From contig OX597842.1 in assembly GCA_951406725.2 (NCBI GenBank), forward strand, positions 19,220,001-19,284,000: a DNA stretch of 64,000 nucleotides, in the 5' to 3' direction. Below are positions 9,252-46,741 of the stretch, piece by piece (within the stretch, counting starts at the first letter, position 1; every line of letters begins with the position of its first letter). The notes beneath the pieces are model-generated. The model had not been told where the DNA came from. It did not search any database and was given only the letters and a program-made list of their open reading frames with translations. Origin of the DNA: Octopus vulgaris. Taxonomy: Eukaryota. The position numbers and the translations under genes were made by a program.

Positions 9252-9327
9252 TGAATGTTTGTCCCCCCAACATCGCTTGACAACCGATGCTGGTGTGTTG
9301 ACGTCCCCCAGTTCGGCAAAAGCGACC
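8425..9327 (+). mobile_element. Three SINE copies; the last two form a ~303-bp tandem duplication leading into the satellite
   Basis: GATACATACATTAACATATACAAACCAACCACATGG occurs at ~8753 and ~9057. Confidence 0.85.
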
Positions 9328-12300: not shown

Positions 12301-12418
12301 CTGAAACGAGTAAAAGAGTAAACGAGTATGGTACCAAAATCTCTTTTTAAATAAACTTAGCAGTTTGGCAGAAGTGACTGATAAAATAAGTACTAGGCTT
12401 ATGAAGAATGAGTCCCGG
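9328..12418 (+). repeat. 170-bp tandem array (satellite) derived from the SINE 3' tail, at least 18 copies
   Basis: GATAAAATAAGTACTAGG recurs at 9328, 9498, 9668 ... 11198, 11360 (one 162-bp unit) ... 12380, then runs into the gap. Confidence 0.97.
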
Positions 12419-14328: not shown

Positions 14329-17300
14329 ATCATCATCATCATCATCATCATTTAGCGTCCGTTTTCCATGCTAGCATGGGTTGGACGGTTCTGCTGGGGT
14401 CTGTGAAGCCAGAAGGCTTCATCAGGCCCAGTCAAATCTGGCAGTGTTTCTACGGCTGGATGCCCTTCCTAACGCCAACCACTCCGTGAGTGTAGTGGGT
14501 GCTTTTTACGTGCCACCCGCACTGGTGCCAGCCAGAGCTGGCAAACGGCCACGAACGGATGGTGTTTTTTATGTGCCACCGGCACGAGGGCCAGGCGAGG
14601 CTGGCAACGAACACGAAACGGGGCGGTGCTGGCAACGGTCGCGAAACGGAAGGTTCTCTTACATGCCACCGGCACTGGTAACACATCTGCAATTTCCATT
14701 GATCGATTTCCATTGATCGATTTCGATTCTGATCCTCACTTGCCTCAATGGGTCTTCACAAGCAGAGTTTCGACATGCCACCGGCACTGGTAGCACATCC
14801 GCAATTTCCATTGATCGATTTCGATTCTGATCCTCACTTGCCTCAACACGTCTTCACAAGTAGAGTTTTGTGTCCCAAGAAGGGAAGGTATGCATACGTA
14901 GGATGGCTCCATCCCATGTAGAAGGCCACGGGTTGTGGACTCACTTGTCCTGCCGGGTCTTCTCGCGCACAGCACACTTCCAGAGGTCTCGGTCTCTAGT
15001 CATTTCCTCGGTGAGACCTAAAGTTCGAAGGTCGTGCTTCACCACCTCGTCCCAGGTTTTCCTGGGTCTGCCTCTTCCACAGGTTCCCTCAACCGCTAGG
15101 GTGTGGCACTTTTTCACACAACTATCTTCATCCATTCTCGCCACATGACCATACCAGCGCAAACGTCTCTCTTGCACACCACAACTGATGCTTCTTAGGT
15201 CCAGCTTTTCTCTCAAGGTACTTACACTCTGCCGAGTGTGAGTACTGGCATTACACATCCATCGGAGCATACTGGCTTCATTTCTAGCGAGCTTACGCAT
15301 ATCCTCAGCAGTCACGGCCCATGTTTCACTGCCATGTAGCATGGCTGTTCGTACACACGCATCATACAGTCTGCCTTTCACTCTGTGCGAGAGGCCTTTT
15401 GTCACCAGCAGAGGTAAGAGCTCTCTGAACTTTGCCCAAGCTATTCTTACTCTAGCAGTTACACTTTCAGCACACCCGCCCCCGCTGCTGACTTGGTCAC
15501 CTAGGTAACGGAAACTATCAACTATTTCTAGTTTTTCTCCCTGGAAAGTGACAGAAGTTGGTCTCAGAGCATTTTCAGTGTTTATTGTTCCTGAGCATCT
15601 GCCACATACAAAAACCATCTTCCTAGTTAGCCTTCCTTTGACATTGCTGCATCTCTTATGTGTCCATAGCTTACACTTGGAGCATCTTATAGAGTTTCTA
15701 CCTACACCTTTTCTACAGATCGAGCAGGGCCATCTACCTGAAGGTGTTTGTGATTTGTCTACCTTCCTACTGATTACGACTTTGGTTTTAGCTAGATTGA
15801 CTCTGAGGCCCTTCGATTCTAATCCTTGTTTCCACACCTGAAACTTCTCCTCCAGTTCTGATAGCGACTCAGCAATTAGAGCAAGGTCATCAGCATAGAG
15901 GAGCTCCCAAGGGCATCCTGTCTTGAATTCCTCCGTTATTGCCTGGAGGACTATGATAAATAGGAGGGGGCTGAGTACTGAGCCTTGGTGGACCCCTACC
16001 TCTACCCGGAATTCTTCACTGTACTCATTTCCAACCCTCACCCTACTAGCGGCGTCCCTATACATGGCCCGCACAGCTCTCACTAACCATTCATCTATCC
16101 CTAGTTTTCTCATTGCCCACCAGATAAGGGATCGGGGGACCCTGTCGAAGGCTTTCTCCATGTCAACAAAAGCCAGGTACAGGGGCTTATCTTTGGCTAG
16201 GTATTTCTCCTGCAGCTGCCTTACCAGGAATATAGCATCAGTAGTACTTTTCCCTGGCACAAACCCAAACTGCATCTCATCTAAACTAACTCTCTCTCTA
16301 ATTAGTTGGGCTATGACCCTCTCCGTAACCTTCATCACCTGGTCCAACAGCTTGATACCTCTGTAGTTGTTTGTATCTAGGGCATCACCTTTACCTTTGT
16401 AGCAGTTGACTATTATACTGCTACACCAGTCATTGGGTATGACCCCTTTGTGTATCACCTGATTAACTATATGGGTGACTAGGCTATAGCCGACACTACC
16501 AGACATTTTGAGCATCTCTGCAGTGATTCCTGATGGGCCTGGGGCTTTCCCTGTCTTCATGCTTCTAATTGCCTTAGCTACCACAGAACTATCAACTCGG
16601 ATAGCTGGTCCCTCTGTTGGGTCAACATTCGGCAGACTCTCTTTATCCCATTCATTTTCTTCATTCAGCAACCTTTCATAGTGGCATCTCCAAACCTCTC
16701 TCTTTGCATCCTCATTTAGCGCAAGTGAACCATCTTCCATGCGAACACACTTCTCTCCTACCACATCACGATTCTCTCTCACACACTGTCTTGCAACACG
16801 AAACACCTCCAGTCTTTGGTCCTCACGGCGCAGAACATTGGCAAATTTTTTCTTATCTGCTTCCCCTCTGGCTAAATAAACCTGTCTCCTAGCTTCTCTT
16901 TTGGCAGTCTGATACAATTCCCTGCTACCCCCATTTTTCCAGACCTTCCAAGCCTGTCTCTTTTCTCTAATAGCCCTGTCTACAATATTGTTCCACCACC
17001 ACGTTATTCTAGGTCGAGAGGGGACTTTGCACCAGCCACAGATCTGGTCAGTGGCTCTCAGCAGGTTGTCCCTTAGAAACGTCCAGCTGTCTTCTACCCC
17101 CTGTGATGCTCTATCCCCTTCTACTTCGTCAGAGGCTTCAAGTAATATGTCCCTAAATCTCTGTCCATTTGCAGGATCTTTAAGCTTCCAGATCCTTCTT
17201 CTCCATATTTGTCGTCTTCTGGTTGTCCTCCTAGTCCTGATCCTAAAGTCACTAACTACCAGTCTATGTTGTGGGGTACATTCTTCACCTGGGAAGGTTT

Positions 17301-17930
17301 TGGCATTTATAAGCAGCCATCTCTCCCTTTGCCTTGTAAGGATGTAGTCAATTTGGCTGGTATGTTGGCCCGATTGGTAAGTGACTAGGTGGCTGGTAGG
17401 TTTCCTGAAGTTAGTGTTGCAAATCATAAGATTATTTGCATCGCAGAACTCCAGCAGCCTGGTTCCTTCCTCGTTGCGGGAGCCATAGCCGTAGCCTCCA
17501 TGTACGCCATGGAAGCCCCCAGCATGTCGTCCAACGTGACCATTGAAGTCACCAGCCACAAAGATAAGGTCTCTGTCGTTCGTCAATGAGGTAGTCTGCA
17601 GTAGAGTGTCATAGAATCGGTCTTTCTGTCCATCGGGTAGCCCCGACTGAGGAGCATAGGCTGATATAATGGTTGCTAAACTATGATGAAGCACTAATCT
17701 AATCTTAAGTATTCTGTCACTTACTCTGATTACCTCAATTACTTTATCTACCCATTTCTCAGCGATAAGTATACCCACGCCACCAACCCCGTCAGTATTC
17801 CCTGCCCAGAAAATCTTGTACCTGCGTTCCTTGCCTGTGAGGAACCTAGCTGATCCTCCTCTCCACCTTATTTCTTGCATGCAACATATATCCACACATC
17901 TCCGTTCAAGCATCTCGACTATCTCACCAG
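14329..17930 (-). mobile_element. RTE-clade LINE, slightly 5'-truncated, with (GAT)n tail, inserted in (TA)n
   Basis: Single APE+RT ORF, ~600-bp 3' UTR with internal tandem repeats, (CAT)n on the + strand. Confidence 0.95.
14941..17930 (-). CDS. RTE ORF: AP endonuclease + reverse transcriptase + PHD-like zinc finger, uninterrupted for ~995 codons
   Basis: Motifs [37 protein letters not shown] and LLYADD. The first ~23 aa of the computed ORF come from microsatellite. Confidence 0.95.
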
Positions 17931-17982
17931 ATATATATATATATACATATATATACATATATATATATACATATATATATAC

Positions 17983-18031
<49 letters not shown>

Positions 18032-18282
18032 CATATATATATACATATATATATATATATACATATTTATACATACAGACCTTGTTCGAAGGTTATATGG
18101 ATACAGTTTGTGTATCAAATAGCTAACTTAAGGCGATGGCCTCATGGAGCTAATAAGCGGACAGCTTTTTTCTTATTTTTATAAGAATGCCATATTAGTA
18201 TGGCGATAACTATTATTTTCCGGGAACGCTGCCGCTGTTCTCTTTTAGAGAGACTTAGTAATTTTAATATTTCTATTATATA

Positions 18283-20062: not shown

Positions 20063-20146
20063 ATGGATGTGAAGAAGATTATAAGCAACATTCTGACTGG
20101 GAACTTTCAAGATGTGAAACGATTTATGAAAGAAAATCCTGATAAA
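20063..20146 (+). CDS. Exon 1 (MDVKKIISNILTGNFQDVKRFMKENPDK)
   Basis: Acceptor AG at 20059-60, ATG at 20063, donor GTAGGT, phase 0. An upstream exon may exist. Confidence 0.75.
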
Positions 20147-21991: not shown

Positions 21992-22143
21992 GTCAACCAA
22001 ATAAACTCACACAGTCAAACTTTCTTAATGGCAGCTTGTGAACAGGGCAGCACAAGTCTCATAGCCTTCTTGATAGAATCTGGAGCCAATATGGACATGA
22101 GTGACAAAGAAGGTCTGACAGCATTACATTATGCTGTGAAAAG
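21992..22143 (+). CDS. Exon 2, ankyrin (VNQINSHSQTFLMAACEQG...DKEGLTALHYAVK)
   Basis: Polypyrimidine-CAG acceptor, GTAAGA donor, phase 0 to 2. Confidence 0.92.
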
Positions 22144-26164: not shown

Positions 26165-26321
26165 TCGTAAAATTGAAGCTGTGGCCTTCTTAGTTTCCAG
26201 GGGAGCAAATGTTAATAAGCAGGATTCATGGAGCAACACACCTCTACATCGGGCTGTGAGGAAGAACTATGAAGATGTAGTCAAAGTCCTGTTAGGTAGC
26301 AAAGGAAATAACATTTTACAG
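26165..26321 (+). CDS. Exon 3, ankyrin (RKIEAVAFLVSRGANVNKQDSWSNTPLHRAV...)
   Basis: TTTCAG acceptor, GTTAGC donor, phase 2 to 0. Confidence 0.92.
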
Positions 26322-27177: not shown

Positions 27178-27788
27178 GTAACTCAGCGAAACAATGATGG
27201 TGGGACACCTCTACATCTTGCCTCTTATCATGGACACACAGACACAGCTAAACTTCTCCTACAACAAAATGGCACTGATGTGAGGGTGGTGACCAACAAT
27301 GGTTCGACACCGCTACATCTTGCCTCACTTCAGGGACACACAGACACAGCTAAACTTCTCCTACAACAAAATGGCACTGATGTGAGGGTGGTGACCAAAT
27401 ATGGTTGGACACCTCTACATCTTGCCTCACTTCATGGACACACAGACACAGCTAAACTTCTCCTACAACAAAATGGCACTGATGTGAGGGTGGTGACAAA
27501 TATGGTTGCACACCTCTACATCTTGCCTCACTTCATGGACACACAGACACAGCTAAACTTCTCCTACAACAGAATGGCACTGATGTGAGGGTGGTGACCA
27601 AATATGGTCGGACACCTCTACATCTTGCCTGTTGGGATGGACACACAGACACAGCTAAACTTCTCCTACAACAAAATGGCACTGATGTGAGGGTGGTGAC
27701 CAAATATGGTCGGACACCTCTACATCTTGCCTGTTGGGATGGACACACAGACACAGCTAAACTTCTCCTACAACAAAATGGCATCGAT
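27178..27788 (+). repeat. 102-bp coding tandem repeat, six units
   Basis: Units start at 27178, 27280, 27382, 27484, 27585 and 27687. Confidence 0.95.
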
Positions 27789-27841
27789 GCCAATGAACTG
27801 GACAAACATGGTGACACTCCCCTCCATCTGGCAGTTCAAAA
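27178..27841 (+). CDS. Exon 4, six tandem ankyrin repeats, with a 1-bp deletion at ~27497
   Basis: TTTCAG acceptor, GTAAGT donor; TPLHLA..GHTDTAKLLL x6; GTGACAAAT in unit 4 versus GTGACCAAAT in units 3, 5 and 6. Confidence 0.93.
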
Positions 27842-28626
27842 GTAAGTCCCCAATGGATTTGGATTATCCAAATCCGTTTCTTTAATGTTTTCAATAACGT
27901 TTGTTTTCTTGTTTTGAGTCATTCATGTCATAATATCACCATGGGACGTCGTGCTTCAACTCTCTCTCTCTCACACTCTAATGACACTGTAACCTACTTC
28001 ATTAATTAATCATCCTAATTATTATTGTTGCTGTTGTTACCTGACTAGATTCTTTACTTCATCTCATCCTTCGTTACCTCAACTTTACAAGTTCAAATCT
28101 TTCCTTTTCTTCTTTTCATTCCATATAAAACACCTCACCCCCTCTCTCTTATAATTTTCCTCTTTCCTCTGACCCTGGTCTAAATGCAGAATCATTCCCT
28201 TACAGTGTTTAGTTTGATCTGTTTATGTTGCAGGTTCAAATCCTGCCAGAGTATTTATTAACAACCTGGAGTGAAAATCTGTACCAGTAATATCCAGGGG
28301 TTCATTTAATAAATTGTCCTCCCTCTTTTCTCCTGTTTTTGTGTCTGATTGCTGTTGGGCAAAATACCTTGTGGTATTTATTTACCACACTTTATGTTCA
28401 AAGTTCAAATCCTGCTGAGGTCACCATGTCCTTCCATCTTTGCTAGGCTAATAAAATACAATACCAGTCATGTACTGGGGTCCTTATAATCCACATTAAT
28501 GCCTCTCCCCATCCTAAATTTCATGGCTATATAACAGTTGTTCATCATACCATATATAGATTGCCGTGTTTACTCAGGTGTGTATATATATCGTTGATCT
28601 ATAATGTAGAGAGTATATCGAATATA

Positions 28627-29168
28627 CGAGGGGGTACCCAAAAGTGGCCGGAAACGTTTCTGTAGGGCAAGGCCATTGAAGTTCAGGCTTCTGCTGCTAG
28701 AAGCCACTTGATGCAATACTCAGGCATCATCCTGCCAAGCGGCATCTTCGAGGATGGTGCTGTTACCATGTGGTGCATCTTTGTTTTGCAGGGCTTCTCC
28801 CCTGTTCGAGTTTTGCAATGGCTGAAATGAAGGATCAGCTTGCTTCCATAAAATTCTGTTTTCTGCTGGAGAAAACGGCAGCCGAAACAGTTGTCATGCT
28901 TCAAACAGTTTACGAGGACACTGCCATGATGCCACGAGCAAAACACAAGATCATGAGTGGTTTTCATGCTTTTCGAATGGTCACTTGTCACTTGAGGTCC
29001 AACCTCATTCAGGGCAGTTCCAGCACTGCTACAAATAGTGGAAAACATGTCTGGGTCGATGCAGTGCTTCAAATGGGGACTACTTTGACGGTGATAATAG
29101 TGTTAATACGTAAAACTAAGCAAAGAAAATAATATTGCAAAATTCTGGGTCCTTCTGGGTCCCCACCT

Positions 29169-29170
<2 letters not shown>
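28627..29170 (+). mobile_element. Internally deleted mariner-type transposon
   Basis: TA-CGAGGGGGTACCCAAAAG...CTTCTGGGTCCCCACCTCT-TA, with the transposase N-terminus QLASIKFCFLLEKTAAETVVML. Confidence 0.75.
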
Positions 29171-29211
<41 letters not shown>

Positions 29212-29505
29212 ATGAGGGTGTCTGAGAGACACCACCATGCCGAAATAGCAGTCGAAACTCTGACTATAAAAACCACGTTAAATGTTCATATCGTTATTAT
29301 ATTCACTGCAGTGTTTATTTTAACCATATCGTGCTTATGGGGTGTTTTGGCGGGCAATTTAACTGGCCGTGTGCATACGTACATATGACACCCTCATTTT
29401 TAATTGTTAAAAAAAAAATTATTACCTTTGTACGGTATTTTTTCCCATGGTGGCCACTTGATAATATCGATATTTAAATATCGATATTATCCTCATTTAT
29501 AAATT

Positions 29506-29536
<31 letters not shown>

Positions 29537-29632
29537 TTATATTAAAGGGTAAAATCATAAATAATTTTTACTAAGTGGTCAGTGCGGAAATATAACCCAT
29601 AGGTAAATTTTTATAAACATTTTATAATTATA

Positions 29633-30026
29633 CTAGCAGTATCGCCCGGCGTTGCTCGGGTTGTAAGGGAAATAACTATATAAGCATTTTTAGAGAGTTA
29701 TAGCCAAAAAATAGCAAAAAAATGCATTAAAAATTGAAAAAAAATTAAGGTAAATTTTTTTTTAAATCGTTGACACATCGTAGATATTTTTAGAGAGTTA
29801 CTTCCCTTATATAAAAGCGAAAAAAATGCATTAAAATGGAAAAATATGATAGTGAATTTTTTTAAAATCGTCGACTCATCATAGATGTGCGCTAATACCC
29901 AGAAGGGCTCGATATGAATCACGACTATAAGATACCCGCTTTTGGTTAAACTGCACCGCAAATGTGGGAGTAGTTACGAATCTAAATCGTAGGAGACAGA
30001 CACACAACTTCACTCTTATATAAAGA
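29633..30026 (-). mobile_element. Non-autonomous Helitron-like element
   Basis: On the minus strand: 5' TC start, 3' GC-rich hairpin (CCCGAGCAACGCCGGG) and CTAG end; related copy at 63163. Confidence 0.7.
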
Positions 30027-30941
30027 TGCTTTTTTTTTCAGTCATAGAGTTAGATTTATGAAGGTCTTCAGTAGAAAATCCTTCGAATTCTGACTCGCTG
30101 CTTGATATAATGAAATTTGTATCCATTTTTTGTAAGAATTACAAATTTTGAAAACACAATAGGAACAAATTTTGGAAAAAAATCTCCGATAATTCACGGA
30201 ATTAAAATTACACTTCGATTTTTGTACAAAACTGTATTTGAAGTGTTTACGAAGTATAACACGTGTTTTCACGAATATACTGAAGAGATTTACTCTGATA
30301 TTCTCATTTAAATATGAATAGGTAAATTCGGGCGGTTTGGTAACGAAAGGGTTTATATAAGTGTCGTCTGTTTATACATAAACACTGTTTCATACTTTCA
30401 GTTTAGTCTTCCTCAAATCACTCTGTCGCTAATTTACTCTCTTCCAAGAACATTTTCACTCACTGTTATCTGTTAGCTTCCCATACATTTTACTCATGTA
30501 TCTATCAGCGTGATAGACAGAAACAAATATTACATCTAGTTTCACTTTATTCGTTGCACACTGTGTGTGTGCGTTTGCGTGTGCTGTAAACCAGACTAAG
30601 AAAAGCATTTGACACACACACCAGAATGTGAGTTTTCTGTAAATTTTGCTTAATTGGAGTTTAAATTTTAAAAACTGGACCTGGCATGACCCGATGCATT
30701 CTACTCTTAAAAATGCTAGGTAAATTGTAATTGAAGAAATCCTATATTGTAGATTTCTATAACTTACAAAGGGAGGCAGATAAAATCTGCCTTTTATAAT
30801 AAGAGATACATAATTATAACAAGGGCTTGGCTTGCTCCTCACCACGCACTGAAAAATAGACGTGAAATACACTATTACCACCATTAATTCTCCAGAAAAA
30901 CACAGTACATGTGTTATAATTATGTATATAATTGTATAATG

Positions 30942-31001
<60 letters not shown>

Positions 31002-31002
31002 G

Positions 31003-31049
<47 letters not shown>

Positions 31050-31235
31050 AGGATCCAAGGATTGAGATGTAGGAAGGTGAGCTTCAAACAATCCATAGAA
31101 AATGTAAGAAACAACTTTCAGGAACAAAAGGGGTTTATTGGGGTACAAGGTTGTTGGTTTTTCCCTTACCGTATCTTCTGTGTTTGAACATGTTCCTCCT
31201 ATTGACAGTGTAAACTTCATTTAATCAAGACACCC

Positions 31236-31323
31236 TTGGTCTGAAGAGTAGCCTGTGGTATACACCCCGTTTGGATATTTACCAGTTCTGATGTTCCACC
31301 TGCTTTGAAACATATGTAGCCCA
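31236..31323 (+). ncRNA. Type I hammerhead ribozyme motif, intronic and in sense orientation
   Basis: TGGT-CTGAAGA(31241)-long stem II-GAAA(31307)-CATATG-TA-GCC; stems are imperfect. Confidence 0.55.
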
Positions 31324-31347
31324 GATTTTATCTACTCCATTCCTTAA

Positions 31348-31400
<53 letters not shown>

Positions 31401-31528
31401 GTATAATGTGTATTTGTGTGTATGTAATTATTGATGTAATTAGGTTATAATGACCTAATTACTTTTGTTTTCATTGGTTAATCTAATAATAATAATTGTT
31501 TTTCCTCTCCTCTTTGTATAACTTTCAG

Positions 31529-31565
31529 GCAACACTATGGTGTGGTATCGTTGATGCTGGCCCAG
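31529..31565 (+). CDS. Exon 5, 37-nt mini-exon (QHYGVVSLMLAQ)
   Basis: TTTCAG acceptor, GTTAGT donor, phase 2 to 0; completes an ankyrin helix. Confidence 0.85.
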
Positions 31566-31877
31566 GTTAGTTAAAAAATACATATTATATCCTCTCTCTA
31601 GTATTCAATATTTATATCATCAAAATACCAGTGAAAATCTGGGGGTAGATTTAATCAACTGCACTGCAGCAGCCTTTACATAGCAGGTCTTGGGTCTGTG
31701 AAGAATAATTATGTTGGTAATAACAATGATGATAGTAGTAGTGGTGATGACAGTCCAACTGACCACCACTGCTGATAGTACTATCTTTAATGGTCAGACA
31801 AAACAAGATCATTATGAATTCAACCCATATATATATCAGATTATATATATCATCATCAACCACTCTGCCATATGCCC

Positions 31878-32145
31878 GTGGGCATATGGCATAGTGGTTA
31901 ATAGTACAGGCTACTAACCCCAAGATTCCGAGTTCAGTTCCAGGCAGTGACTTGAATAATAATAACAATAATAATAATAATAATAATAACAACAACATTG
32001 AAAAATACCTTTGGAATGAGAACATAGGTTCGAAATTTCCTCAAGACACCTGGCAAAGGCTGGAGGGTATATCAGCCGAAACATTGTGTTAACAACAAAC
32101 AAGATGAGGACAAATATCCATCAAATGTAAATAATGTAAATAATG
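31878..32145 (+). mobile_element. Second tRNA-derived SINE family with internal (AAT)n
   Basis: TGGCATAGTGG A-box, GAGTTCAGTTCC B-box and a TGTAAATAA repeat tail. Confidence 0.7.
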
Positions 32146-32844
32146 ATGATCATCATCTTTTAATGTCTGTCTCTCATGTTGCGTGTGTGTGTGTAAATTG
32201 TTGGTGTCTGCATTTTATCTTGTGTCCAATAATTTATTTGGCTTCTTGGCTGCTTTTTTCCCTCTGCACGTATGTATAAATGTGTGTGTATATATGTATA
32301 TATATATATATGTATACCCAGAAAGAGAGTTACTCTTGTCAGACACATTGCACACTCAGATTATGCAGCAGAGATAAGTTAAAGGTCCTTGTCCCCAGCA
32401 GCAAAGCTAAATGAGGGCATGCTGAACTCAGTGCCTATTGCTTCGTTAATCCCTTATCATCAGTACATGATGCATCAACTTCCCCTTCTCCTCTCTCTGT
32501 GCCTAACTCAACAGATTGACTACCCTTACTGTATTTGTCTACCTAACTTATTTACCTTTATTTGTATTAACATGGCTTTGCATGAATGCCGGGATGCAAC
32601 ACCCTCCACTGTTGGTGGTGACAATACCTGATTAACTCCTCTTTACAGGTATCCATACGAACACCTCTGTGCTAATGCCAGCACAACACCCACGTCCAGT
32701 GGTGTTAGCAAGCGTTACATGAATGATGCAGGATTAAATGCAAGGACAACTGCTAATGACATGCTGGCAGGAAAATGCTAATAACAACCTTTTCAGATGC
32801 TGATAGCTGCAGCCAATGTAGACACAGCACTGTCGATGTAAGCA

Positions 32845-33290
32845 CATATTCATCAGGTAGCCCTGACTGAGGGTCATAAGCCAAGATAATGGTTGCTAAT
32901 CCATGTTGCAGCACTAATCTAAACTTCAGTATTCCATCACAGACTCTGACTATCTCGATTACCTTATCAGCCCATTTCTCTGCAAGAAGTATACTCATGC
33001 CCCCGACTCCATCAGTGTTCCCTACCCAGAAAATCTTATACTTATGTTCTTTGCCTGTGAGGAACCTAGGAGAACTTCCTCTCCATCTTCTTGGATGCAG
33101 CACAAATCTACACATCTCTGTTCAAGCATGTTAACAATCTCACCAGACCTACCTTTCAGTGTGCCGACGTTGAGAGTACTAACCCTGAGGGTGTTGAAGA
33201 TATGGGTCCATGAGACCCTGGGATGGGGGACAGCAGCATCATGTACCTGAAAAGAAAGCTTGCATTTGGCAGAACCCATAAACATACAAT
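32845..33290 (-). pseudogene. Old RTE 5' fragment (endonuclease N-terminus)
   Basis: RVSTLNVGTLKGRSGEIVNMLEQRCVDLCCIQE and [15 protein letters not shown]; frameshifted. Confidence 0.85.
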
Positions 33291-33391
33291 AGTCTTCAAC
33301 CTGCAAACACTACACCATCATTTTATGCACTACATCATCACTACATTACATAGGAGATAAACCCTATATATATTATATGTATATATGTGTA

Positions 33392-33437
<46 letters not shown>

Positions 33438-33654
33438 AAATTAAAATCAAAATGTGGGTGAAAGATTGGATATTAATTTAATAACATCAATTTAACACCA
33501 GTGGTCTAGTGTATAAAAAACTGAGATTCAGTAAATGATTTTCTGGAGAACAATTCTTAGTGGTTGAGAGCTATGCAGATCTCTTTTTAGCGCAATGGCT
33601 TCCACATAGTGGTTCCCTCATATTTATGTATAAAATACTATTTACTGAATCTCA

Positions 33655-33704
<50 letters not shown>

Positions 33705-33974
33705 GTATGTATGTATTGGGATTGTATCACCAATTATTATGACATGATACTGTTTATACTATAACCTTGTAGTAACAATAAAACATATTACGGATCAGGG
33801 TAACAACAACAATCCATACACAAACCAACAAACAATGAAAACAACACCTTACGACTTCCTGCAATTAACACCTACTCTCTCTGGTCTCTCACTCAGACTG
33901 CTACTATTCATAGTCGTTCAGTCAAGTCTGTTCTTGCACGCGTTCTTGTGACTCTCGCCACAACATGTAATCGA

Positions 33975-34252
33975 GTCCAGGACTTATTCTACGTAAGCCT
34001 AGTACTTATTCTGTTGATCCTTTTTGCCAAATCGCTAGCAATTGTTAAGCAATGTTGGGAGGACAAACACAGACACACAGACACACACACACATACGATG
34101 GGCTTCTTTCAGTTTTTGTCTACCAAATCCACTCACAAGGCTTTGGCCAGTCCGAGATGATAGTACAAGACACTTGCTCAAGGTGCCATGCAGTGGGACT
34201 AAACGCGGAATCATGTGGTTGGTAAGCAAGCTATTTACCATAGCCACTCCTG
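33975..34252 (-). mobile_element. Diverged SINE (main family)
   Basis: Similarity to head and tail. Confidence 0.75.
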
Positions 34253-34255
34253 TAC

Positions 34256-34297
<42 letters not shown>

Positions 34298-34631
34298 AAA
34301 TATATCTATATATATATGTTTGTGTGTATCTCACTTCCATAATATTCATGTATATGTGTGTGTATGTACAGGAATGTTAAGGATGTGGACACTAACCAAC
34401 TCACCTGTTTTATGAACCCCTTATTAATATAGCAACATCATAATTCTTCTTTACTAGTTTTGATCTGCTAATTATATGTTCACTCTTGTTCTGCTCCCCT
34501 AAAATTTACTATAGTGAGAGATAAATATAGATTAGGCTGAAACAATCTGTTTAAGACCTCTTAATAGATTTATCATGTCCCTAACACATATCCCATGTAC
34601 ATTTTCAATTTCTATTTTTACTTCCACAAAG

Positions 34632-34844
34632 GATTCAGTGAAACTGGATATTGGGAATCATAACAAAATGACACCATTGCTGGAAGCCGTGTCCAGGACC
34701 CACCTCGGAATAATCCATAAACTTATTATACATGGTGCAAATATTAATGCTGTCGACAATGATGGCAATAATTGTTTGCACCTCTCCATAATAAAGAAAG
34801 AGATGTTCCATTCTGAGGTGGAACCCATTCCCATTTTAGATGAG
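34632..34844 (+). CDS. Exon 6, ankyrin (DSVKLDIGNHNKMTPLLEAV...DNDGNNCLHL...)
   Basis: AAG acceptor, GTAAGT donor, 213 nt, phase 0 to 0. Confidence 0.9.
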
Positions 34845-35619
34845 GTAAGTTTTTAAAATTGTTTGTGAATATGTGTGTGTGGTTGGCATTAGGAAGGGCA
34901 TGCAACCATAGAAACTATGCCAAAACTGGCAATTGGTGCCTGAGCAGCTCTGCAGCTGCCCAGCTTCTGCCAAACTATCCAACCCATGCCAGCATAGAAA
35001 ACGAATGTAAAATGATGATGAGGAGGATGTGTGTATGTGTGAGTGAGAGAAAGAGAGAAACAGGCAGACATTGTTTGCTATTTTCTTTCACTCCCATCCA
35101 CTTCTCTTCCTTTAGTATTAAATAATTCAGTTTCTCCTGATAGCACTAGTTGTATTATGTAACTAACAATATTCCATCTTCTTTCACCTTCAAAAGCATG
35201 GCCACTCCACTGTAAAGAAGGTAACCCGTCTTAAATATGTGTCATGTAAACACTGCCATCACTGTATGAAGGAGAGGTGACCAACGACAGAGATAAGTCT
35301 TTAAATTTAAGAAAGAGAAATTCACAAACTGTTTTAAATATCGAATTTCAAGTTAAACGAGTTGAACTGTGTTAATTGCTAGAAAGCATATTTCATTATT
35401 CTTTTTCAAAGAAAGGAAAAGGAAAATAAATTCGTTTATGGACAATTAAATTTAAAGAAAATAAATTCATGGACTTCGAAGAAAGTTTCTTTTATCAGCA
35501 TGATAATGAATATATAACTGAGTTTATTCAAAGTTGATAATTAGGGTTCCAAATATTGCCAGGGCTTGGACTTTATGTGTATATTGACTACAGTAATACC
35601 CCTTGCAATGATTGTAAAG

Positions 35620-35861
35620 AAGGGAGATGTGATGAGAATGAATTTACATTAAGATGTGTGCACAAAAGTGTAATGTCCCGAGATTGTATGTATGACGATG
35701 TAACTAGACAGATAGTCATAGAGGCCCTTTGTTACCAACAAAGATAGAAGCTCTCTGAAGTTTGCCCTGCTTAATCTTATTCTAGCAGCTATGCTCTTGG
35801 CGCATCCACCTCCACTACTGACTTGATTACCTAGATGACAGTAGCTATCAACTACTTCTAG

Positions 35862-35865
<4 letters not shown>
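35620..35865 (-). pseudogene. Old RTE RT C-terminal fragment
   Basis: [29 protein letters not shown] matches the intact RTE ORF. Confidence 0.8.
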
Positions 35866-35913
<48 letters not shown>

Positions 35914-36921
35914 TTGTTTGTTTGAAAGACCTCAGCATCTATCTACTGGTAGATCTGATGGTGTTTATTGTCTATTGTTGCAGAATTTAAGCAACTCTTT
36001 GATTCCCAAATATGTAACGGTCACTACAGATGTGTGACTATTTCAGACAGTTGATGGTCACCTATGTATTGTTGTAATGTCTTCTTTGGTGAGAAGAAGC
36101 TACTCTAGCAGTCAACAACCCATTATTATAGGAATTGTCTATCAGACTAACAGTTTCAACAATTTCTTGACTATAATGTGTTGGTGTGTTGCCTCAACCA
36201 CCATGCCAATCTTTACTTCACTTCATCAGCCAAAAATGTTTCTTTATAAATTTTGGAAACATTATTGATATGCTTGGATATGTCTGTCTGGTGTTGGTTT
36301 TGTTGCTGTGTCTGAAGAAATTATTATGTTCTTGGTGTTCTCTGTTCATTGTTTGTTGTTATGGAAATGAGTTGCACTTAGTGACCAGTGAAACGTTTCC
36401 CAATCAATATTTGGATTATCGAAATTACCAGTAGGAAAATATGGGTGACTGCTTTCATAGATGCAGATCTGAAGATGTCAAAAATCTGAGTTTTGATGGC
36501 AGTTTTGCAGATGGTAAACAAATTCAAGTAGGAGTATATATGTTGTTAAAAAAATACTTCTTGTTGCGACCAGTTAAAATCTCCCCAAGGAATTACAGAA
36601 AATCTTGAGTGACCATAGACCATCACACGACCCCCATGGTAATTAGAATGGCCTTTGTGTAAAAAAATGTAGCTTGCCATTGTTTGTTGTTATGTTGTTG
36701 TGTTATATTTATATATACAATACTCTTCCATAAGTATTTCTTTTGTTATGGCCAGTTGGCTTTATCAAGCCAGTTGTAAAGATAGGTTCTTGTTGGTTTG
36801 TTGTGTTCTGTTATTTGTGATACTTGTTCCATTATATTTCCTACATTTGACATGATTTGTTTATCTACAATATATATTTGTGTAATATTCTACTGATCGT
36901 TTTATATTTCATCATTTGCAG

Positions 36922-37097
36922 TGCTGCAGAGAGCTCCAACTGGACATGGATAGGAGGCTCTCTGGAATAGTAGTTTTGAGTTATCTTGCCAGCCAAGGAG
37001 CCAGCTTATACCATCGTAATGATGAGAAAGTGACCCCATTGGACTGCATAGAAAATCAACATTTGAAAGAAAAATTAAAAACATTTTTACAATCACT
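36922..37097 (+). CDS. Exon 7 (CCRELQ...YLASQGASLYHRNDEKVTPLDC...)
   Basis: TTGCAG acceptor, GTAAGT donor, phase 0 to 2; resembles the last Mind-bomb ankyrin. Confidence 0.9.
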
Positions 37098-38088
37098 GTA
37101 AGTACTCACTGGCAACGCCAAGATAAACCAGGACATTTTCTTTTTTGTATATAATCATGTTTATATGTTTATTTAGTTTGAATTCTCCCATTGTATTATT
37201 CCGTCATTAGTGTCTTGACTCAAGACAACAATAATGATTTCAATTCTGGCACAAGGCCAGCAAGGTCAGGGAGGGGATAAGTCAATTACAACAGCCCCAG
37301 TTTTCAACTGGTACTTATTTCATCAACATCAAGGTAAAGTCAACCGCAGCTGAATTTGAACTCAGCATGTAAAGGCAGACGAAATGCCAGAAAGCATTTT
37401 GATCTGTGTGCTAATGATTCTGCCAGCTTGCAGCCTTAAGACCACACAACAATAATAAGAACAATAAACAGAAAATACAGTTGTTAGTGGATCAAACGAA
37501 AAACACTATTTTGATGACATTCACATGATTGCTTGTGTTGACTGATATACCTCACCATCCACCCCTGACTATTTTAGAGTTCGGTGACCTCCATGAAAAT
37601 GTAGTACTAAATAATAAAGTGAATGAACACATTTTGAAATTGCTATTGAGAAGTAAATAGGATTTATCTGTCTACCAACAATTTTTTCTCTTTCTCTCTC
37701 TTCTCTGATTCAATCAGTTGTCATGTACGCTTTCATGTGAAAATAACCTAAAACACACACTAACAATGTGTATGTCATCATCATCATCATTTAAAGTCTG
37801 TTGTCCATGCTGGCATGGATTGGACTGTTTGACTGGGATGGCATGTTGGAAGGCTGCACCTTAGTCAGCCTTTGATATTTTCAGCCCACCCTTGTATGTG
37901 TATGTTAATGTGACGCTTGTATACACACAAATCTGCTTGTATGTAATTGTTTACAGAAGAATTTACGATGTACTCTTGCTGGTTACTGTTGTGCCCCTTA
38001 ATATTCTGTACTCTAAATATGTCCACAACGAAATATTTTATTATAAATGAATGTTAATGATGGGATGTGTTAATATTTTGTTCCACAG

Positions 38089-38231
38089 GTGTCGGTGGTG
38101 TCAAGAGAAAAAGGCTACTGTCACACTCCATCCATGTCAACATACTGTTATTTGTCAGAATTGCTGTTCTCAACTGGCATTTAAGCAATGCCCCATATGT
38201 CGACAACACATACTCCGGAAAAGTGGATTTG
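38089..38231 (+). CDS. Exon 8, RING finger C3HC4
   Basis: CRWC-x11-CQH-x3-CQNC-x8-CPIC; CACAG acceptor, GTAAGA donor, phase 2 to 1. Confidence 0.93.
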
Positions 38232-38515
38232 GTAAGAACATTCTTTCTTGATCTGTCTGTTGTCTCATTAACTTTCTGATATGGAATAATGCACTTCATA
38301 TTGTAGTGGAGACATGCAACTCCTTGTTTGTAATAATATATGATTAACACTTGTTATAATGTTTGCCATCCTTTTAGACATTTTATACTCACACTCGTTA
38401 GTTTTTAGATGTGATTAATGCTAAAAGAGACATTGTTTTCTGACTCTTTCACCTTTTGGCTTTACTTTTGAGTTGATTCGTTTTAATTCGAACATGAAGC
38501 CTGGTCATTGCTCCA

Positions 38516-38752
38516 AGGTAGTATCAGAAAGTTCACGGACTAGTTCTGAAGCATGCCAACAGATGGCAGCACACGGTTGCGTGCACAGTGAGAGCTAGCA
38601 GTGACTTTCATGAGGCGGTGTGCTGGGTGACACCACTGTGTTTACTTAAAAAGTTGTGAAATTTGTGCTTTTGTGGTCATTTGTAGGCTGTAGTCTGCAA
38701 TTTTCTAATGGGCAGGAACAAATAACCAATGTGAAATTTTGTGTTAAACTTG
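38516..38752 (+). mobile_element. mariner-like 5' fragment
   Basis: TIR-like AGGTAGTATCAGAAAGTTCACGGACT and the ..NVKFCVKL remnant. Confidence 0.45.
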
Positions 38753-39080
38753 TCCAGCAAAGACATAAGAAAGAAACAACAAAACTAAGAGAAAAAGAGT
38801 GTTATGAAGTGATAACTAAGTGAGAGAATTTCAGAATTGTTAGATTAGTATATAGGACGTCCTAAGAGAAAGATGAGATTTAGAAAGGTTTGCCTATTTT
38901 GTTGTGGTTCTAAATATTGAACTATTATATAGTAACAGCTTAGAAAGTGTTGACCGAAAGCATAGTGGTCACCAATTGACTATTGATGATATGAATGCCT
39001 TACAATAATGGAATATAGATTATTAAAAGAGACAAAGAAATTTTACTATGAAGTATAAAACTTTGAAATGCTTATTTCAG

Positions 39081-39131
39081 TGTGTCCAAAGTTTGAAGAA
39101 GAAGCAACCCAGGCAGTTGCAGAGTCTGTTG
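39081..39131 (+). CDS. Exon 9, 51-nt symmetric mini-exon (CPKFEEEATQAVAESV)
   Basis: TATTTCAG acceptor, GTGAGT donor, phase 1 to 1. Confidence 0.75.
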
Positions 39132-39246
39132 GTGAGTATAAAATAACTGTAATTGATTTCTATAAATTTTACCTTCACCTGAGATATATTATTTGTGTGA
39201 ATGTCTGAGAACAGGTTCCATTCCTAATTTCCAATTCTTATTTCAG

Positions 39247-39298
39247 AGTGTCCAAGGTGTAGAGAAAAAAACAGTCAAGATGGTTGTAGAATCTTTTG
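39247..39298 (+). pseudogene. 52-nt duplicate of exon 9, frameshifting if included
   Basis: Same splice context as exon 9; aligns to it with one extra base. Confidence 0.6.
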
Positions 39299-39717
39299 GT
39301 GAGTATAAAATAACTAATTGATTTCTATAAATTTTACCTTCATCTGAGATATATTATTTGTGTGAATGACTGAGAACAGGTTGTAAGAAAGAAAAGACAC
39401 AATGAAGAGAAAAACAGTGTTATCAAGTGATAGTTGAATGAGATATTCGCAGAAATGTTAGATTATGTAGGCTGTCTTAATAGAGAGAGAAAAGGGGAAG
39501 AATTTAGGAAGGTTAGTCTATTTTGTGGTGGCCCTGAATGTTGAGCTTTAACATGGTATCACGGTAGAAAGTATAAAAATATTAGCCAAAACCATAGTGG
39601 TCACCAGTTGACCATTGATAATAGGAATGTCTGACAATAATAAAATATAGACTATTAAGAAAAATAATTTTAAAAAATTTAACTATATATTGTAAAACTT
39701 TTAAATATTTATTTCAG

Positions 39718-39789
39718 AGAGTTTAAATTTGGATGAAAACCGCTCCCATAGCACATCGAAGAAGGTGGAAGTTAAGCAACAGCAAGTTG
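39718..39789 (+). CDS. Exon 10, 72-nt symmetric exon, a diverged paralogue of the first Death-domain exon
   Basis: TATTTCAG acceptor, GTGAGT donor; ends in QQV like exon 11. Confidence 0.72.
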
Positions 39790-40599
39790 GTGAGTATAAA
39801 ATAAGTCTGTAAGTGATTTCAAATTAGTTTTACTTCACTTGAGCATATTTTATTTGTCAGAAGGACTGTGAACAGGTTCCATTCTTAATTTTCAATTGAA
39901 AAATTATCTGTTTAATAATTCTTTTGAAGAAATTACTGAAATTTAAGAGAATGCCCACCAATGTTAGAACAGACAAAAGTTAATGATGTCTTTTGGAATA
40001 GAGAACTAAAATATGTTATTTGGTTGGGGGTGAACAAGTGCTTTAACGACAAGGCCTTCATTTTACATTTATACTGTGTTTACTAATAAGTTGTTGTTGT
40101 TTTAGCAGGAGTCTCTCATAATCTGGCAGACTTACAATGAAATGCATTCCAAGTGTCAACATCCTGTCTTTTTGTCACTGATAGGAAATCTAACATTACA
40201 TCCATTAAACACATTGTCTTTATCGAAGTAGAAAACACTGGCTTGCTACTGAGATAGCCATTGCTTCTTTGTTGTTTTTCTCTCTCTCATTCTCTTTTTG
40301 ATAGATACTAGCTGCAAGATACAACAAATGACATTGTCCTCATCATTTATCATCTGATTTCCATGTTGCTGTGGAATGGATGGTGAGGGGGGTGGGTCAC
40401 GGTCCAAGTCAGTTCTTATTAGCAGTTACTGTCCACCTTCGTTGGTTGAGGATCATGTCCCACTAAAACATTCCAGCTTTCCTATGATGGTCTACCCTTC
40501 CTAACACCATCCACTTTATAAAGGATCCTGGGTGCATTTTATTGTGGCACAAATACAAGAAAGATTGTTATGTATTCAACAAAATTAAACGTTCCTCTC

Positions 40600-40657
<58 letters not shown>

Positions 40658-40954
40658 AATCATTCCCTGAGTTCAGTACCTTCTTAGGTTGACTTTTCAT
40701 TTCATTCCTCATGGGTCAGTAAAACAATTACAAGTTACATAACATGTCAAACTAATTGACTTCATACTCTCTCCTACAGATCTATCCACTTGTATTAATC
40801 GAAGAATTCATAATTAACATTCATTTTTGATCATTTTTCAAAACCCTCGTTACCACACTATATTGTTGTCCAACTGAATCATCTCTTCCAATCATATCAA
40901 GTAAAACCTTCCGCTTTTCTGTATATTTTGGTGAGACTGATTGTTTGGTGTTTT

Positions 40955-41219
40955 AGAACATGACCTTTAAAGCCAAGTATTGAGAAGACGACCCATCAAG
41001 CCAAGTAAAATTGCAGTCGTGGCAGATACTGGTGCCGTGCTGGTGGCATGTAAAAGCACCCATTGCACTCAGGGAATGGTTGGCATTAAGAAGGGCATCC
41101 AGCCGTAGAAACCATGCCAAATCAGACTGGAGTCTGGTGCAGCCTTCTAACTTGCCAGCCTCAGTCAAACTGTCCAATCCATGCCAGCATGGACAATGGA
41201 CGTGAAGTGATGATGATGA
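40955..41219 (+). mobile_element. RTE-3'-end-like short element with (GAT)n tail
   Basis: GGAAGGGCATCCAGCCGTAGAAAC-like core; similar copies near 22735, 34875 and 37775. Confidence 0.7.
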
Positions 41220-41289
41220 ACTGGAGGGGCACATACAGGAGATCTACACTGATCCTAAGTGAGATAATCCATTCCTACTCATGGACAGT

Positions 41290-42410
41290 TTGAAATGTCC
41301 CCAAAAAACCATGAATCAAATCTCAACTTGGTGGTTTCTAGCAGAAACAATTATATAGCTGAGTGAAGAAGGCAAAAGCAAAGAGTGCCCCAGGAGGTGA
41401 TGGTGTATCATAGAAAGTGTACAGGTATTGTACACAATTATGTTATAAGCTGTACTTAAAGAGTTGTGGCATAAAGGTGAAATGGTTGATGACTAGTACA
41501 AGGCATAAAAAAATTACTTACCAAAGAAAGCTGAAACAGAACTGATTGAGCAGTTCAGACCCTTTTCAATCTTGAATGTAGATGGCAAGATTTATATGGG
41601 TCCAGTTGCCAAGAGATCAGCTACACATCTCCAAAATAATGACTATGAGACCGAGAGTGTCCAGGATGCTGGAATTTCCAGAACCACTGGATGGGTAGAA
41701 CATGATTTTTCAATGTGCAATGCAATACAAGACACAAAGAAGAATAAAAGGGATTTGAACGTTGTATGACCTGATCTGGTTGATGCTTATGGTTCTGTAC
41801 CACACAAATTAGTGATGGAACCAATGAACTTCTTTTATATATAAGAGAAGATTAGAGATCTGACTAGAAGCTGCTGTAATAATTTCAAAATGTGGTTCCT
41901 GACAGAAAATTTCACAACAGACATCGTTTTGAAACTGTAATTGCTGTAGGTTGCACAATATCAGTCATTTGGTTTGTGCTTGTTATGGAGATGTTACTTA
42001 GATCAGCAGATTGATCAGAAGAAATGGCTCGAGTGAAATCACCCAAGAAGGAATTTAAAGGATGATATAACAATACTAACAAGAGAGCAAAAGGGTATGC
42101 AAATAGTTCTGGATGGACTGGATTAACTAATTCTTTGGTCAAGAATGGAGTTTAAACCAAATAATTAATGCAGTCATTTGTCAAAAGGTTAGCTGAAGCA
42201 AGTGAAGTTCAAAACAGCATACAAAACCATGCCAAGGGTTAAAGAGAAACCTCTAAAATCTTTTGGACGATGGTATGCTACCTCATTGTCTAGTAAGAGT
42301 AGAGTTATAGAGGTCATGGCACAAACTGAAGATGGGCTAAAGGCAATAGCTAAGCCAACATTTCCTGGCAAATAAAAGATTTGATGCTTCCAGTTTGATC
42401 TGTATCCCTT
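41290..42410 (+). pseudogene. Degenerate RT of a non-LTR retrotransposon of the restriction-like-endonuclease group (NeSL/HERO-like)
   Basis: QFRPFSILNVDGKIY, DLVDAYGSVPH, VGCTISVIWFVLVME, DDITILT, WSRMEFKP and EKPLKSFGRWY, with many stops and shifts. Confidence 0.75.
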
Positions 42411-42964
42411 CCTTGCTTATAAAATTCTTGAGTATCAGTTTTTATGCAACATTTCAGATTTTTTTACTGCTATAATGTATGGATGAACAATTATATATAG
42501 TTAATAAGATTTTGTGAAAGCATAAAGTGTTTTTGGATACCTGATATGTTTTTGCTCCCTCTGTAGAATTAATCATTGCCCACCTGGAAAGAAATCTGCT
42601 TCATTAAGAAGTCTTCTAACATCTCAAATACATGTGGCACATATATAAGAAACAAAAAATGAAAACTAAAAGGAAAACAGTGTTATCAAGTGATAATTAA
42701 ATGAGATAATTGTAACATTGTTAGATTATTTAAGATGTTTTAATAGAGAAAGGAAATTGAGGAAGGTTAGTCTATTTTGTTGTAGACCTAAGTATTGAGC
42801 TATTTACCTGGTCCCACTGGAGAAAGCATAAAAATGTTGACCAAAAACATAGTGGTCACCCGATGACCAGCGATGATGACAGGTATGTCCTACTATAATA
42901 AAATATAGATTATAAATAAAGAATTTTTACTCTCAAGTATAACAGTTGCAAATATTTATTTCAG

Positions 42965-43036
42965 AAACTCCAAAGTTAGAGGAGAAGTGTCTCCAAGATG
43001 TTGCAAAACTGTTAGGAGTCAACTGGCAGCAAGTTG
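42965..43036 (+). CDS. Exon 11, Death domain N-terminal part (TPKLEEKCLQDVAKLLGVNWQQV)
   Basis: The L..VA..LG..W..(V/L)G pattern of Death-domain helices 1-2; 72 nt, phase 1 to 1. Confidence 0.9.
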
Positions 43037-44363
43037 GTGAGTATAAAATAACAGTACTTAATTGATTTCAATAAGTGTCAGCTTTTGTTTGTCAGCATGA
43101 CTAAGAGAAGCTCCCATTCCTACTTTCCAATTGAAAGGCTAGCTGTAAAGTGATTCTATTAAAGGTGTTGGTATTACTGAAACATCATAAAATAGCCACC
43201 GAGATTAGCGGGGTCAGTAAAATGGCTAAATTAGAGGACACAATCGATTTAATATTGTCTTTTGAGAGAGCAAATTAAAATATGTCATTTAAGGGTAAAC
43301 TGGTGAGTTAATGACCATTTTTTTTTGTTTGTTTTACATTTTTACTAAGTTTACGTTTTGTTGTTTTTTCTTTGCAAAATGCCTGTTTTAATCAGAAATA
43401 CGATGGAAAGTATTTCAGGTGGGACATCTCTGTCTTTCAGTTGGTAGTACAGGACTACATCATTAAGTGCATCCTTTTTTACATGCTCCTGTGTATAGTG
43501 AGTGGCACGTTGCAGCCACTCCACTGTCCAGTGTCCATTTAGTTGTGAACCACTCTTCACTGACATGTAATGGTTGATTGTACGTAGGTGGATGGTGTTT
43601 ATGTTGGTGATTCCTGTCTTCTTTCCTGCAAGTTAAAAGTATCCTCTTTGCTTGGTTTAATTTAACACCTCTCTATTACACTGGGTAACAACGATTTTTG
43701 TCCATGGATAACAATTGTTATTTCCAATTTGCTTAACCCTAGAAAATATGAGAATGGCTAGTATCTCCTTCAAACTTTGCTTTCGTCACAATATATACCA
43801 TGTAGACCTCACACATTTCAGCTGATGTTGTTTCACAGTGATTTTACGCTGTTGTCTTGATAAATTCACCACAGACACAGCAGAATGTATCTGCCAGATG
43901 CTTACAACCTCTTGATGCCATCTGTGATGAATGCAGTTCTTGGATAGTTAGAAATAAACTGAACTGGTGATCTTATGATCCCTTTTTTTACACTGGTATC
44001 TATGTTGCCAGAACGTTCTAGAAATTCTTGGAAATTTTAGTAACTTCTTGATGATAGTTCTAGAAAATTCTAGAAAATTCTGCTTCAGTGACTCAGCACT
44101 GAATCTGTCTGGAAATAGGTTTCAAAACATTGATGTCCAGGTGACAAAAGCAACGTTTGAAGGGAACAGATGTCCTTTCCTTTGATTTCTTGATGGAAGT
44201 AAATAGGAAATAACACTTAACTTATCAAAGACAAGAAAAAATTAAAAGTTTGTTAAGCAGTGTTATTGATTTCTCTCTAAATCATGTCCTTGAACCATTC
44301 AAAGAGATCCTTATTATGAGTCATGAACCCATGTTGTCTACCAAAATGTGTTATATTTTTGTA

Positions 44364-46535: not shown

Positions 46536-46741
46536 GCAGGAATTTAGGAATCAGAAATGTCCAACTGGGGATTATCAAGCATGACAATCCTTTAAACACT
46601 AAAGAGCAGAGCTTCCAGATGCTGCACACATGGTACACAAGTTGTGATCCAGAGAGACGAACACTCAAAACACTCAGAAAAGCTCTTGAGGAAGCTGAAT
46701 GCTTTGAGGCACTTCAATGCCTACCATCAGAAGAAAAGTGA
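46536..46741 (+). CDS. Exon 12 (last), Death domain C-terminal part and stop
   Basis: RNLGIRNVQLGIIKHDNP..KEQSFQMLHTW..TLKTLRKALEEAEC; TTGCAG acceptor, TGA stop. Confidence 0.92.

Follow-up and report, generated by a model that had tools for sequence, protein, structure and literature searches.

Evidence for a shuffled and selected ankyrin-repeat exon in a Mind bomb-like gene family of Octopus, whose products may be inherited intracellular sensors

Near-identical repeats that vary in number are known from the fungal NLRs (Podospora Pa_3_8560 and the HNWD/het-e proteins, with units of the ANK, TPR or WD type), in which they are accompanied by selection on the concave ankyrin face, by exchange between loci and by coupling to a module for cell death or signalling. 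The number polymorphism of the ANK repeats and the selection on their concave face are described in PMC4986451, where highly conserved repeats of this kind account for 0.8% in metazoans (here and below, statements drawn from the literature refer to the accessible portions of the cited sources). Near-identical units, a unit number that varies among genes, selection on the predicted binding face, exchange between loci and coupling to a death module recur in the Octopus genes analysed in this work, and the parallel with fungal high-identity repeats drawn in a preliminary description of this DNA is supported by that source (PMC4986451); unlike the fungal receptors, the octopus genes belong to an animal, have neither NACHT nor NB-ARC, carry their sensor at the N-terminus, derive from MIB2 and end in a death-domain effector. 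The engineered DARPins (6mol; PMC4308713) offer a second term of comparison, since they share with the octopus units the fold, the fixed scaffold, the variable hairpin and the variable end of helix 1. The octopus units differ from them in being natural, in their length of 34 aa, in having position 33/34 fixed and positions 1, 10 and 12 also variable, and in their limited residue alphabet (44 faces among 63 units).

Two further groups of proteins resemble the family in part. The fish TRIM-B30.2 genes (finTRIM, btr; PMC3137616) likewise lie in clusters, carry a RING, have a recognition domain under positive selection and swap domains within a multigene family; the folds are different, the octopus diversity arises by modular repeat shuffling, and a ligase activity of the octopus proteins is doubtful. 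ANKDD1A/B, PIDD1 and the RIPK1-type adaptors combine a repeat sensor or ankyrins with a C-terminal death domain of a similar sequence class; their ankyrin likeness to the octopus proteins is that of a generic repeat only, and they are single-copy and conserved. No description of the octopus family was found in the accessible part of the literature, which included six cephalopod or mollusc papers and mostly lay outside the subscription journals. Tissue evidence was found neither in the main texts of PMC4199593 and PMC10138644 nor in the supplements of PMC9712504 and PMC13230822 that were searched; the main text of PMC6522055 mentions no Mind bomb gene but canonical MIB1, and the octopus hemocyte and brain cell-type papers make no mention of the family and yielded no ligand, tissue, induction or phenotype. 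The ANK caspases of PMC11463336 were considered as well and are not a MIB2-derived ankyrin-death-domain family.

The window, i.e., the whole stretch of 64,000 nucleotides of Octopus vulgaris under investigation, contains a tandem repeat with a 102-nt period (27197-27783; 5.8 copies, 94% matches by TRF), which on translation proved to lie in a single exon (27178-27841, + strand) bounded by AG and GT, whose splice ends coincide with loose ends of assembled contigs. This exon encodes six ankyrin units of 34 aa (102 nt each), followed by a seventh, capping half-unit. The amino acids vary at seven of the 34 positions (1, 2, 3, 5, 12, 13 and 14) and are invariant at the other 27; positions 15-34 contain one silent change only (Gln26, unit 4), another is found at Pro7 (unit 2), and two more silent differences fall inside the variable codons 2 and 12. 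The array is real and no artefact, and its units are more than 85% identical over at least 100 aa, the measure by which highly conserved NLR repeats are recognised. The preliminary description had seen six near-identical units with about two silent changes, which the translation and the count of silent sites bear out, and it had rightly placed the variable sites at the turn, at the residue before TPLH and at the end of helix 1; it had overlooked position 1, which alternates between T and D, and had counted six faces where there are five, units 5 and 6 being identical at positions 1-28. It had also missed a 1-base deletion inside the array, which sets units 3 and 4 only 101 nt apart. Beyond the array, it had not recognised the gene described below, with its RING and its death domain, nor that this gene stems from MIB2 and belongs to a multigene family.

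In order to place the array in its gene, the Octopus sinensis proteins P0002-P0004 (P0002 by tblastn) were mapped onto the window and the splice sites were checked. The host gene consists of 13 exons (20063-46741, + strand), all with canonical splice sites, encoding ankyrins, a RING, a linker and a death domain. Exon 1 (20063-20146), located by tblastn with P0002 and ending in a GT donor, carries the start codon and an N-terminal ankyrin cap. By protein mapping, exon 2 (21992-22143) is an ankyrin exon, the counterpart of an octopus MIB2 exon with the same phase-2 end, and exon 3 (26165-26321) an ankyrin exon with a single-copy unit, whose binding face also varies among the paralogs. The array exon, the fourth, is followed by exon 5 (31529-31565, 37 nt), by exon 6 (34632-34844), a MIB-type ankyrin used here as the family marker, by exon 7 (36922-37097), the last MIB-type ankyrin (both recognised by protein mapping and by comparison with MIB2), and by exon 8 (38089-38231), which encodes a C3HC4 RING, intact and corresponding by homology to the first of the two RINGs of MIB2 (Pfam zf-C3HC4_3, E 4.4e-11). 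Three symmetric phase-1 linker exons (39081-39131, 39247-39298 and 39718-39789, by protein mapping) are used alternatively in the O. sinensis isoforms and are disordered in the structural model; in the paralogs, they are duplicated to differing numbers. Exon 12 (42965-43036, by protein mapping) opens the death domain, and exon 13 (46536-46741; Pfam Death E 3.6e-5 for the exon alone) encodes its remainder and the stop codon. All these exons lie on the + strand.

In P0003, the Pfam Death match is above the cut-off (E 1.8e-9), and the model of this protein shows a helical domain at residues 641-718, as in the six-helix death fold; by sequence, the domain belongs to the RIPK1/TRADD/PIDD class, with RIPK1 and TRADD as the best PDB sequences. 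Differences between the window copy (46538-46610) and nine paralogs cluster in a short patch near helix 3 of the domain, with a non-significant whole-exon omega of 1.72. Pfam scans of eight full-length relatives revealed no NACHT or NB-ARC, so that on its domain content the family is not classed among the NLRs. Two candidate identities of the gene were rejected, namely a bacterial or endosymbiont ankyrin gene (the gene is spliced and has MIB2 introns) and a canonical ankyrin-1/2/3 (there is no ZU5 and the tail is of the MIB type). As to the surroundings, a LINE with an open frame of 1041 aa, containing endonuclease and reverse transcriptase domains, lies just upstream of the gene on the opposite strand (14941-18066), and a 170-bp unit, which seems to have been amplified from part of a common interspersed repeat, occupies 9309-12418 in 18.3 tandem copies with 98% matches.

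The octopus genome also contains a canonical two-RING MIB2, on C26, which matches exons 2, 3, 4, 6, 7 and 8 in order and with the same intron phases; P0002 is 43-50% identical to it in exons 6-7, and the match to MIB1 (8v0e) spans the atypical last repeats (E 7.5e-12). The MIB2 counterpart of exon 4 holds one 34-aa unit, which explains the 34-aa period of the array. Judged by exon order, intron positions and intron phases, the family was derived exon by exon from MIB2, its RING being the first RING of that protein. The MIB_HERC2-ZZ-MIB_HERC2/REP substrate-binding N-terminus is absent from the full-length relatives (Pfam), none of the ten MIB_HERC2 matches in the whole genome (from 22 candidates) lies on C29 or C31, and the terminal catalytic RING is replaced by the linker and the death domain. 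Having lost these two defining parts, the family protein is, by its domain content, no Mind bomb ligase. It differs from MIB2 and MIB1 also in copy number (at least 77 against two) and in a concave face that is hypervariable, but conserved in MIB1 as far as the accessible source goes. These data show the first two steps of the history: the C-terminal half of MIB2 was copied, with loss of the MZM/REP region and, in this branch, of the terminal RING, and with gain of a death domain; then a single exon, with only one complete ankyrin of 34 aa, expanded this unit in tandem to 4-14 copies in close paralogs, and to more than 20 in a distant one. The O. bimaculoides protein P0017 (70% identical), which keeps both MIB2 RINGs and lacks a death domain, is likely an intermediate form.

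The reading that we favour, if only by a little, is that the array forms the variable exon in a MIB2-derived Octopus family whose units are shuffled and selected, and whose proteins are likely, as putative receptors, inherited intracellular sensors. The ankyrin groove would bind pathogen or parasite proteins, upon which the death domains would cluster and recruit partners of the RIPK/FADD/TRADD/PIDD type, leading to cell death or to an NF-kB output; binding, ligand and output, and with them the immune role, are inferred. The register of the variable sites is consistent with such a groove: the AlphaFold model of P0003, a 7-unit O. sinensis relative (pLDDT 83), superposes on the DARPin 6mol with a TM of 0.88 and an rmsd of 2.6, and positions 2-5 fall in the loop before helix 1 and positions 12-14 in its last turn, so that by homology to the DARPin the variable residues are predicted to lie on the concave face.

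Among the other explanations, the one that survives best, though it is unlikely, is that the proteins are ubiquitin ligases of variable specificity, comparable to the fish TRIM-B30.2 proteins (PMC3137616), in which the array picks the targets, the RING ubiquitinates them and the death domain serves as a localisation or assembly module. All eight zinc ligands of the RING are intact, and in close paralogs the domain ends in CPICR; many active RINGs are recognisable by an Arg that follows their last Cys, and some relatives, such as P0017, keep the terminal MIB2 RING. However, the RING kept here is RING1 of MIB2; human MIB2 requires its second RING for the ubiquitylation of cFLIP and can dispense with the first (PMC7815719, section 8), the MIB1 fragment ANK-RING1-2 shows no self-ubiquitination, and RING1-2 of MIB1 are dispensable for ubiquitin transfer (bioRxiv 10.1101/2024.03.01.582834). 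The kept RING is more likely to be structural than catalytic.

Less probable still is that the same binders serve a role unrelated to pathogens, i.e., self/non-self recognition, gamete or neuronal identity, or the binding of transposon proteins. Sequence signs of selection do not reveal what exerts it, mobile elements abound in the genome, and the Podospora repeat receptors act in allorecognition (PMC4986451); on the other hand, both the cytosolic architecture with a death domain of the RIPK1/TRADD class and the part played by MIB2 in TNF death signalling (PMC7815719) point to immunity and cell death, in agreement with the sensor reading preferred here.

The extent of the family was assessed by searching the 2.8-Gb genome with exon 6. 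Among 327 candidates, 150 matches were scored, and 49 of them were excluded as parts of a tandem satellite on C9 (9,565,802-9,586,214), which is built of exon 6 copies with a period of about 262 bp. Of the 101 remaining, 77, a lower bound for the number of relatives, are followed within 40 kb by a death-domain exon on the same strand, and 57 of these 77 lie on the small chromosomes C29 and C31; for the death domain, 19 of 145 matches were excluded (tandem C1 copies with stops). The family seems to be centred on Octopus: a protein search with exon 6 retrieved 30 proteins, 26 of which come from O. sinensis, O. vulgaris or O. bimaculoides and four are generic ankyrins; with the C-terminal half all 50 hits are from Octopus, as are all 20 family-like matches checked among the 150 matches listed by HMMER. 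Nine close loci have arrays of 6, 5, 4, 6, 8, 9, 8, 14 and 4 units; 63 of these 64 units were compared (one garbled unit was dropped and two single-unit remnants were left out). In the 10 kb upstream of the marker exon, ten further members have mostly one unit or none; either most members lack long arrays or their array exon lies outside the stretch examined.

Some members of the family depart from this scheme. A distant one (C31:826,500-830,700) has more than 20 tandem 34-aa units with the same variable positions and an omega of 3.0, and an older array (C29:21,773,000-21,777,500), which is long and has a period of 33 aa, shows no excess at the DARPin positions (omega 0.73). Paralogs at 29.44, 29.52 and 29.61 Mb of C29 and at 23.66 Mb of C27 are 90-96% identical in exon 6 and carry another type of death domain, 55-57% identical to that of the window, which represents a swap of the effector domain. 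Outside cephalopods, arthropod clusters of "mib1-like" ankyrin and RING proteins of about 400 aa (200 and 60 members) are present in the ESM Atlas and hint, as a lead only, at separate truncated Mind bomb expansions.

The 63 units bear the marks of exchange. Of 171 pairs of informative sites, 141 are incompatible (PHI P=0.0012), the multi-base blocks at positions 2-3 and 12-14 (KY/ND and SYN/CQN) occur in all four combinations, the diversity of units within loci equals that between loci, and eight of the 44 faces are found in more than one locus. The window gene itself is a mosaic, since a tract of 16.5 kb (27500-44000, + strand) that starts inside the array is 99.7% identical to the neighbouring paralog A (C29:19.318-19.335 Mb; 52 mismatches in 16,534 columns). 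Outside the tract, the two genes differ by 83 mismatches in 3,016 positions upstream and by 100 in 2,431 downstream; upstream of it, the window gene is mostly nearer to a paralog B, with which it has unit 2 in common, one silent base included. The region around 44500-45550, at the distal end of the tract, resembles, by eye, what we take to be a decayed mariner transposase. Between species, the nearest O. sinensis relative of the window gene has seven units, the last two being the same, and seven of 17 O. sinensis faces are present in the O. vulgaris pool; unit numbers range from 4 to 14 among paralogs and are 5, 6 and 7 between species in the nearest set, short contigs being too short for arrays. 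Compared with O. sinensis, the array of paralog B is nearly unchanged (four units kept, three faces unchanged), and turnover is thus not constant.

The PHI test, the shared faces and the mosaic tract together support an exchange of units within and between genes, and they bear out the recombination that had been proposed for the array from its appearance alone. Germline exchange explains the repeat patterns seen. In a third step, which the sequence statistics show, unequal crossover and gene conversion keep the scaffold uniform, while the blocks of the hairpin (1-5) and of the helix end (12-14) are reassorted from unit to unit and from gene to gene.

Whether the variable sites correspond to binding positions was evaluated on the six positions 2, 3, 5, 13, 14 and 33, which we take to be those randomised in DARPins. 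Five of the six vary, position 33 being invariant, and 13 of the 16 minimum non-synonymous changes of the window array fall on them (binomial P=1.5e-7, for a set checked for register on 6mol and fixed after the units had been seen, hence not blind), a concentration for which a chance repeat was rejected. An independent library, ANK-N5C, randomises 2, 3, 5, 10, 13 and 33 in its own numbering (PMC4308713). Among the 63 units, dN at the DARPin positions is 0.39 within and 0.47 between loci, the framework dN is 0.04, dS is 0.082 within and 0.087 between loci, and the flanking introns of close paralogs diverge by 0.019-0.032; of 200,000 random sets of six positions, 60 reach the DARPin rate (P=3e-4). 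At the synonymous sites that alternate with the variable codons, pS is 0.088 against a pN of 0.345, and the codon bootstrap against codons 1-14 gives 0.017. The same pattern is seen in two other sets of arrays (omega 2.8 with 46 units and 3.0 with 22 units); the older 33-aa array has an omega of 0.73 (13 units). A codon model, fitted over a grid of fixed omega values, prefers 3 to 1 (2dlnL 6.8), though roughly, with recombination ignored and equal rates forced. The variable codons also show more synonymous change (pS 0.156), which brings the local omega down to about 2-3, and a deliberately conservative minimum-change count there gives 28 non-synonymous changes in 15.0 sites against 7 synonymous ones in 3.0 sites, a ratio of 0.8. 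The DARPin-type contact positions named in the preliminary description are thus supported by register and enrichment, and the excess of non-synonymous change that it predicted is seen in the dN/dS comparisons and in the codon model, the tests on local dS being weaker.

To our knowledge, DARPin-type positions vary in all natural ankyrins, and the pattern could be imagined as neutral turnover: redundant or decaying paralogs would have duplicated their units in tandem in recent times, and constraint would be relaxed where change is always tolerated. The raised synonymous change and the local ratio of 0.8 speak for it, as do the four of nine arrays that are frameshifted as assembled, the satellite and pseudogene copies of family exons present in the genome, and the omega of the other exons, which for exons 1-3, 6-8, 12 and 13 as wholes is 0.3-1.7, in no case significantly above 1, and also fits weak constraint. 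This explanation is nevertheless very improbable: relaxation is unable to raise dN about tenfold above the divergence of introns, the four-fold sites at codons 4, 6, 7 and 11, which lie between the variable codons, are almost fixed, the pattern recurs in separate clades, and no stop codon occurs at the variable codons in the 63 units. The comparisons support a selection that would favour new residues at positions 2, 3, 5, 13 and 14 (and 10), the fourth step of the proposed history; diversifying or balancing selection on the variable codons, with homogenisation of the rest, is the form that the data support, the size of omega being uncertain.

Expression was examined in the runs X2, X3 and X16, from two studies, in which the array exon is covered and its flanks are not, so that they are guessed to be RNA from this exon-limited cover and their spliced ends; a DNA run covers both. 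The loose ends of contigs match exon 5 (29 of 30 bases, X2) and the end of exon 3. Spliced, in-frame transcripts are thus present for the subfamily, not specifically for the window locus, and at this level, with runs presumed to be RNA, the expression of the exon that the preliminary description had demanded is found. In X2, all the depth at 27494 (four contigs) carries the base missing from the assembly. The deletion (27494-27495, + strand; one base with respect to paralog A and the transcripts) lies at the start of the near-identical tract, shifts the assembled frame and leads to a stop after unit 4; as assembled, a second indel adds one A to the run of A at 39265-39271, in the second linker exon. 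Both are changes of homopolymer length, paralog A being otherwise identical at the linker site. Since the mosaic switch coincides with the deletion, an assembly junction is possible there. The frame-changing indels in four of the nine close arrays fit either consensus errors in repeats or real decay; for the window, the copy is probably intact in vivo and affected by two homopolymer errors of the assembly, a real frameshift being a serious possibility of lower probability, which would concern this copy and not the mechanism of the family. That the family is real but this locus holds no working gene, being either dead or a chimera assembled from two haplotypes, is hardly credible: the two indels, the position of the deletion where the tract shared with paralog A begins and the in-frame contigs, which are indistinguishable from paralog A, would agree with it, but the indels change homopolymer length only against an otherwise identical neighbour, the splice sites are canonical throughout, the tract still has its 52 mismatches with flanks that are 2-4% different or without match, and intact relatives with 4 and 7 units are found in O. 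sinensis.

In its widest form, the sensor reading would describe a MIB2-derived natural library of DARPin type, in which two small chromosomes carry about 100 cytosolic sensors with ankyrins and a death domain, diversity being maintained by shuffling and selection, acting in the role of NLRs and possibly reshuffled in somatic cells; we hold this version tentatively, at slightly less than even chance, and the data analysed contain no evidence of somatic diversification. With its 34-aa units, the array itself is what nature offers as a counterpart to the DARPin design. No diversified receptor family of such a build is known in cephalopod immunity, and the genes described here have been concealed under the labels "MIB2-like", "ankyrin-3-like" and "secG-like". 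If the reading is true, it would represent an independent animal invention of a variable intracellular sensor with repeat dynamics like those of the fungal NLRs. The genes, the positions and the two chromosomes named here are concrete objects to set against the parasites of octopus.
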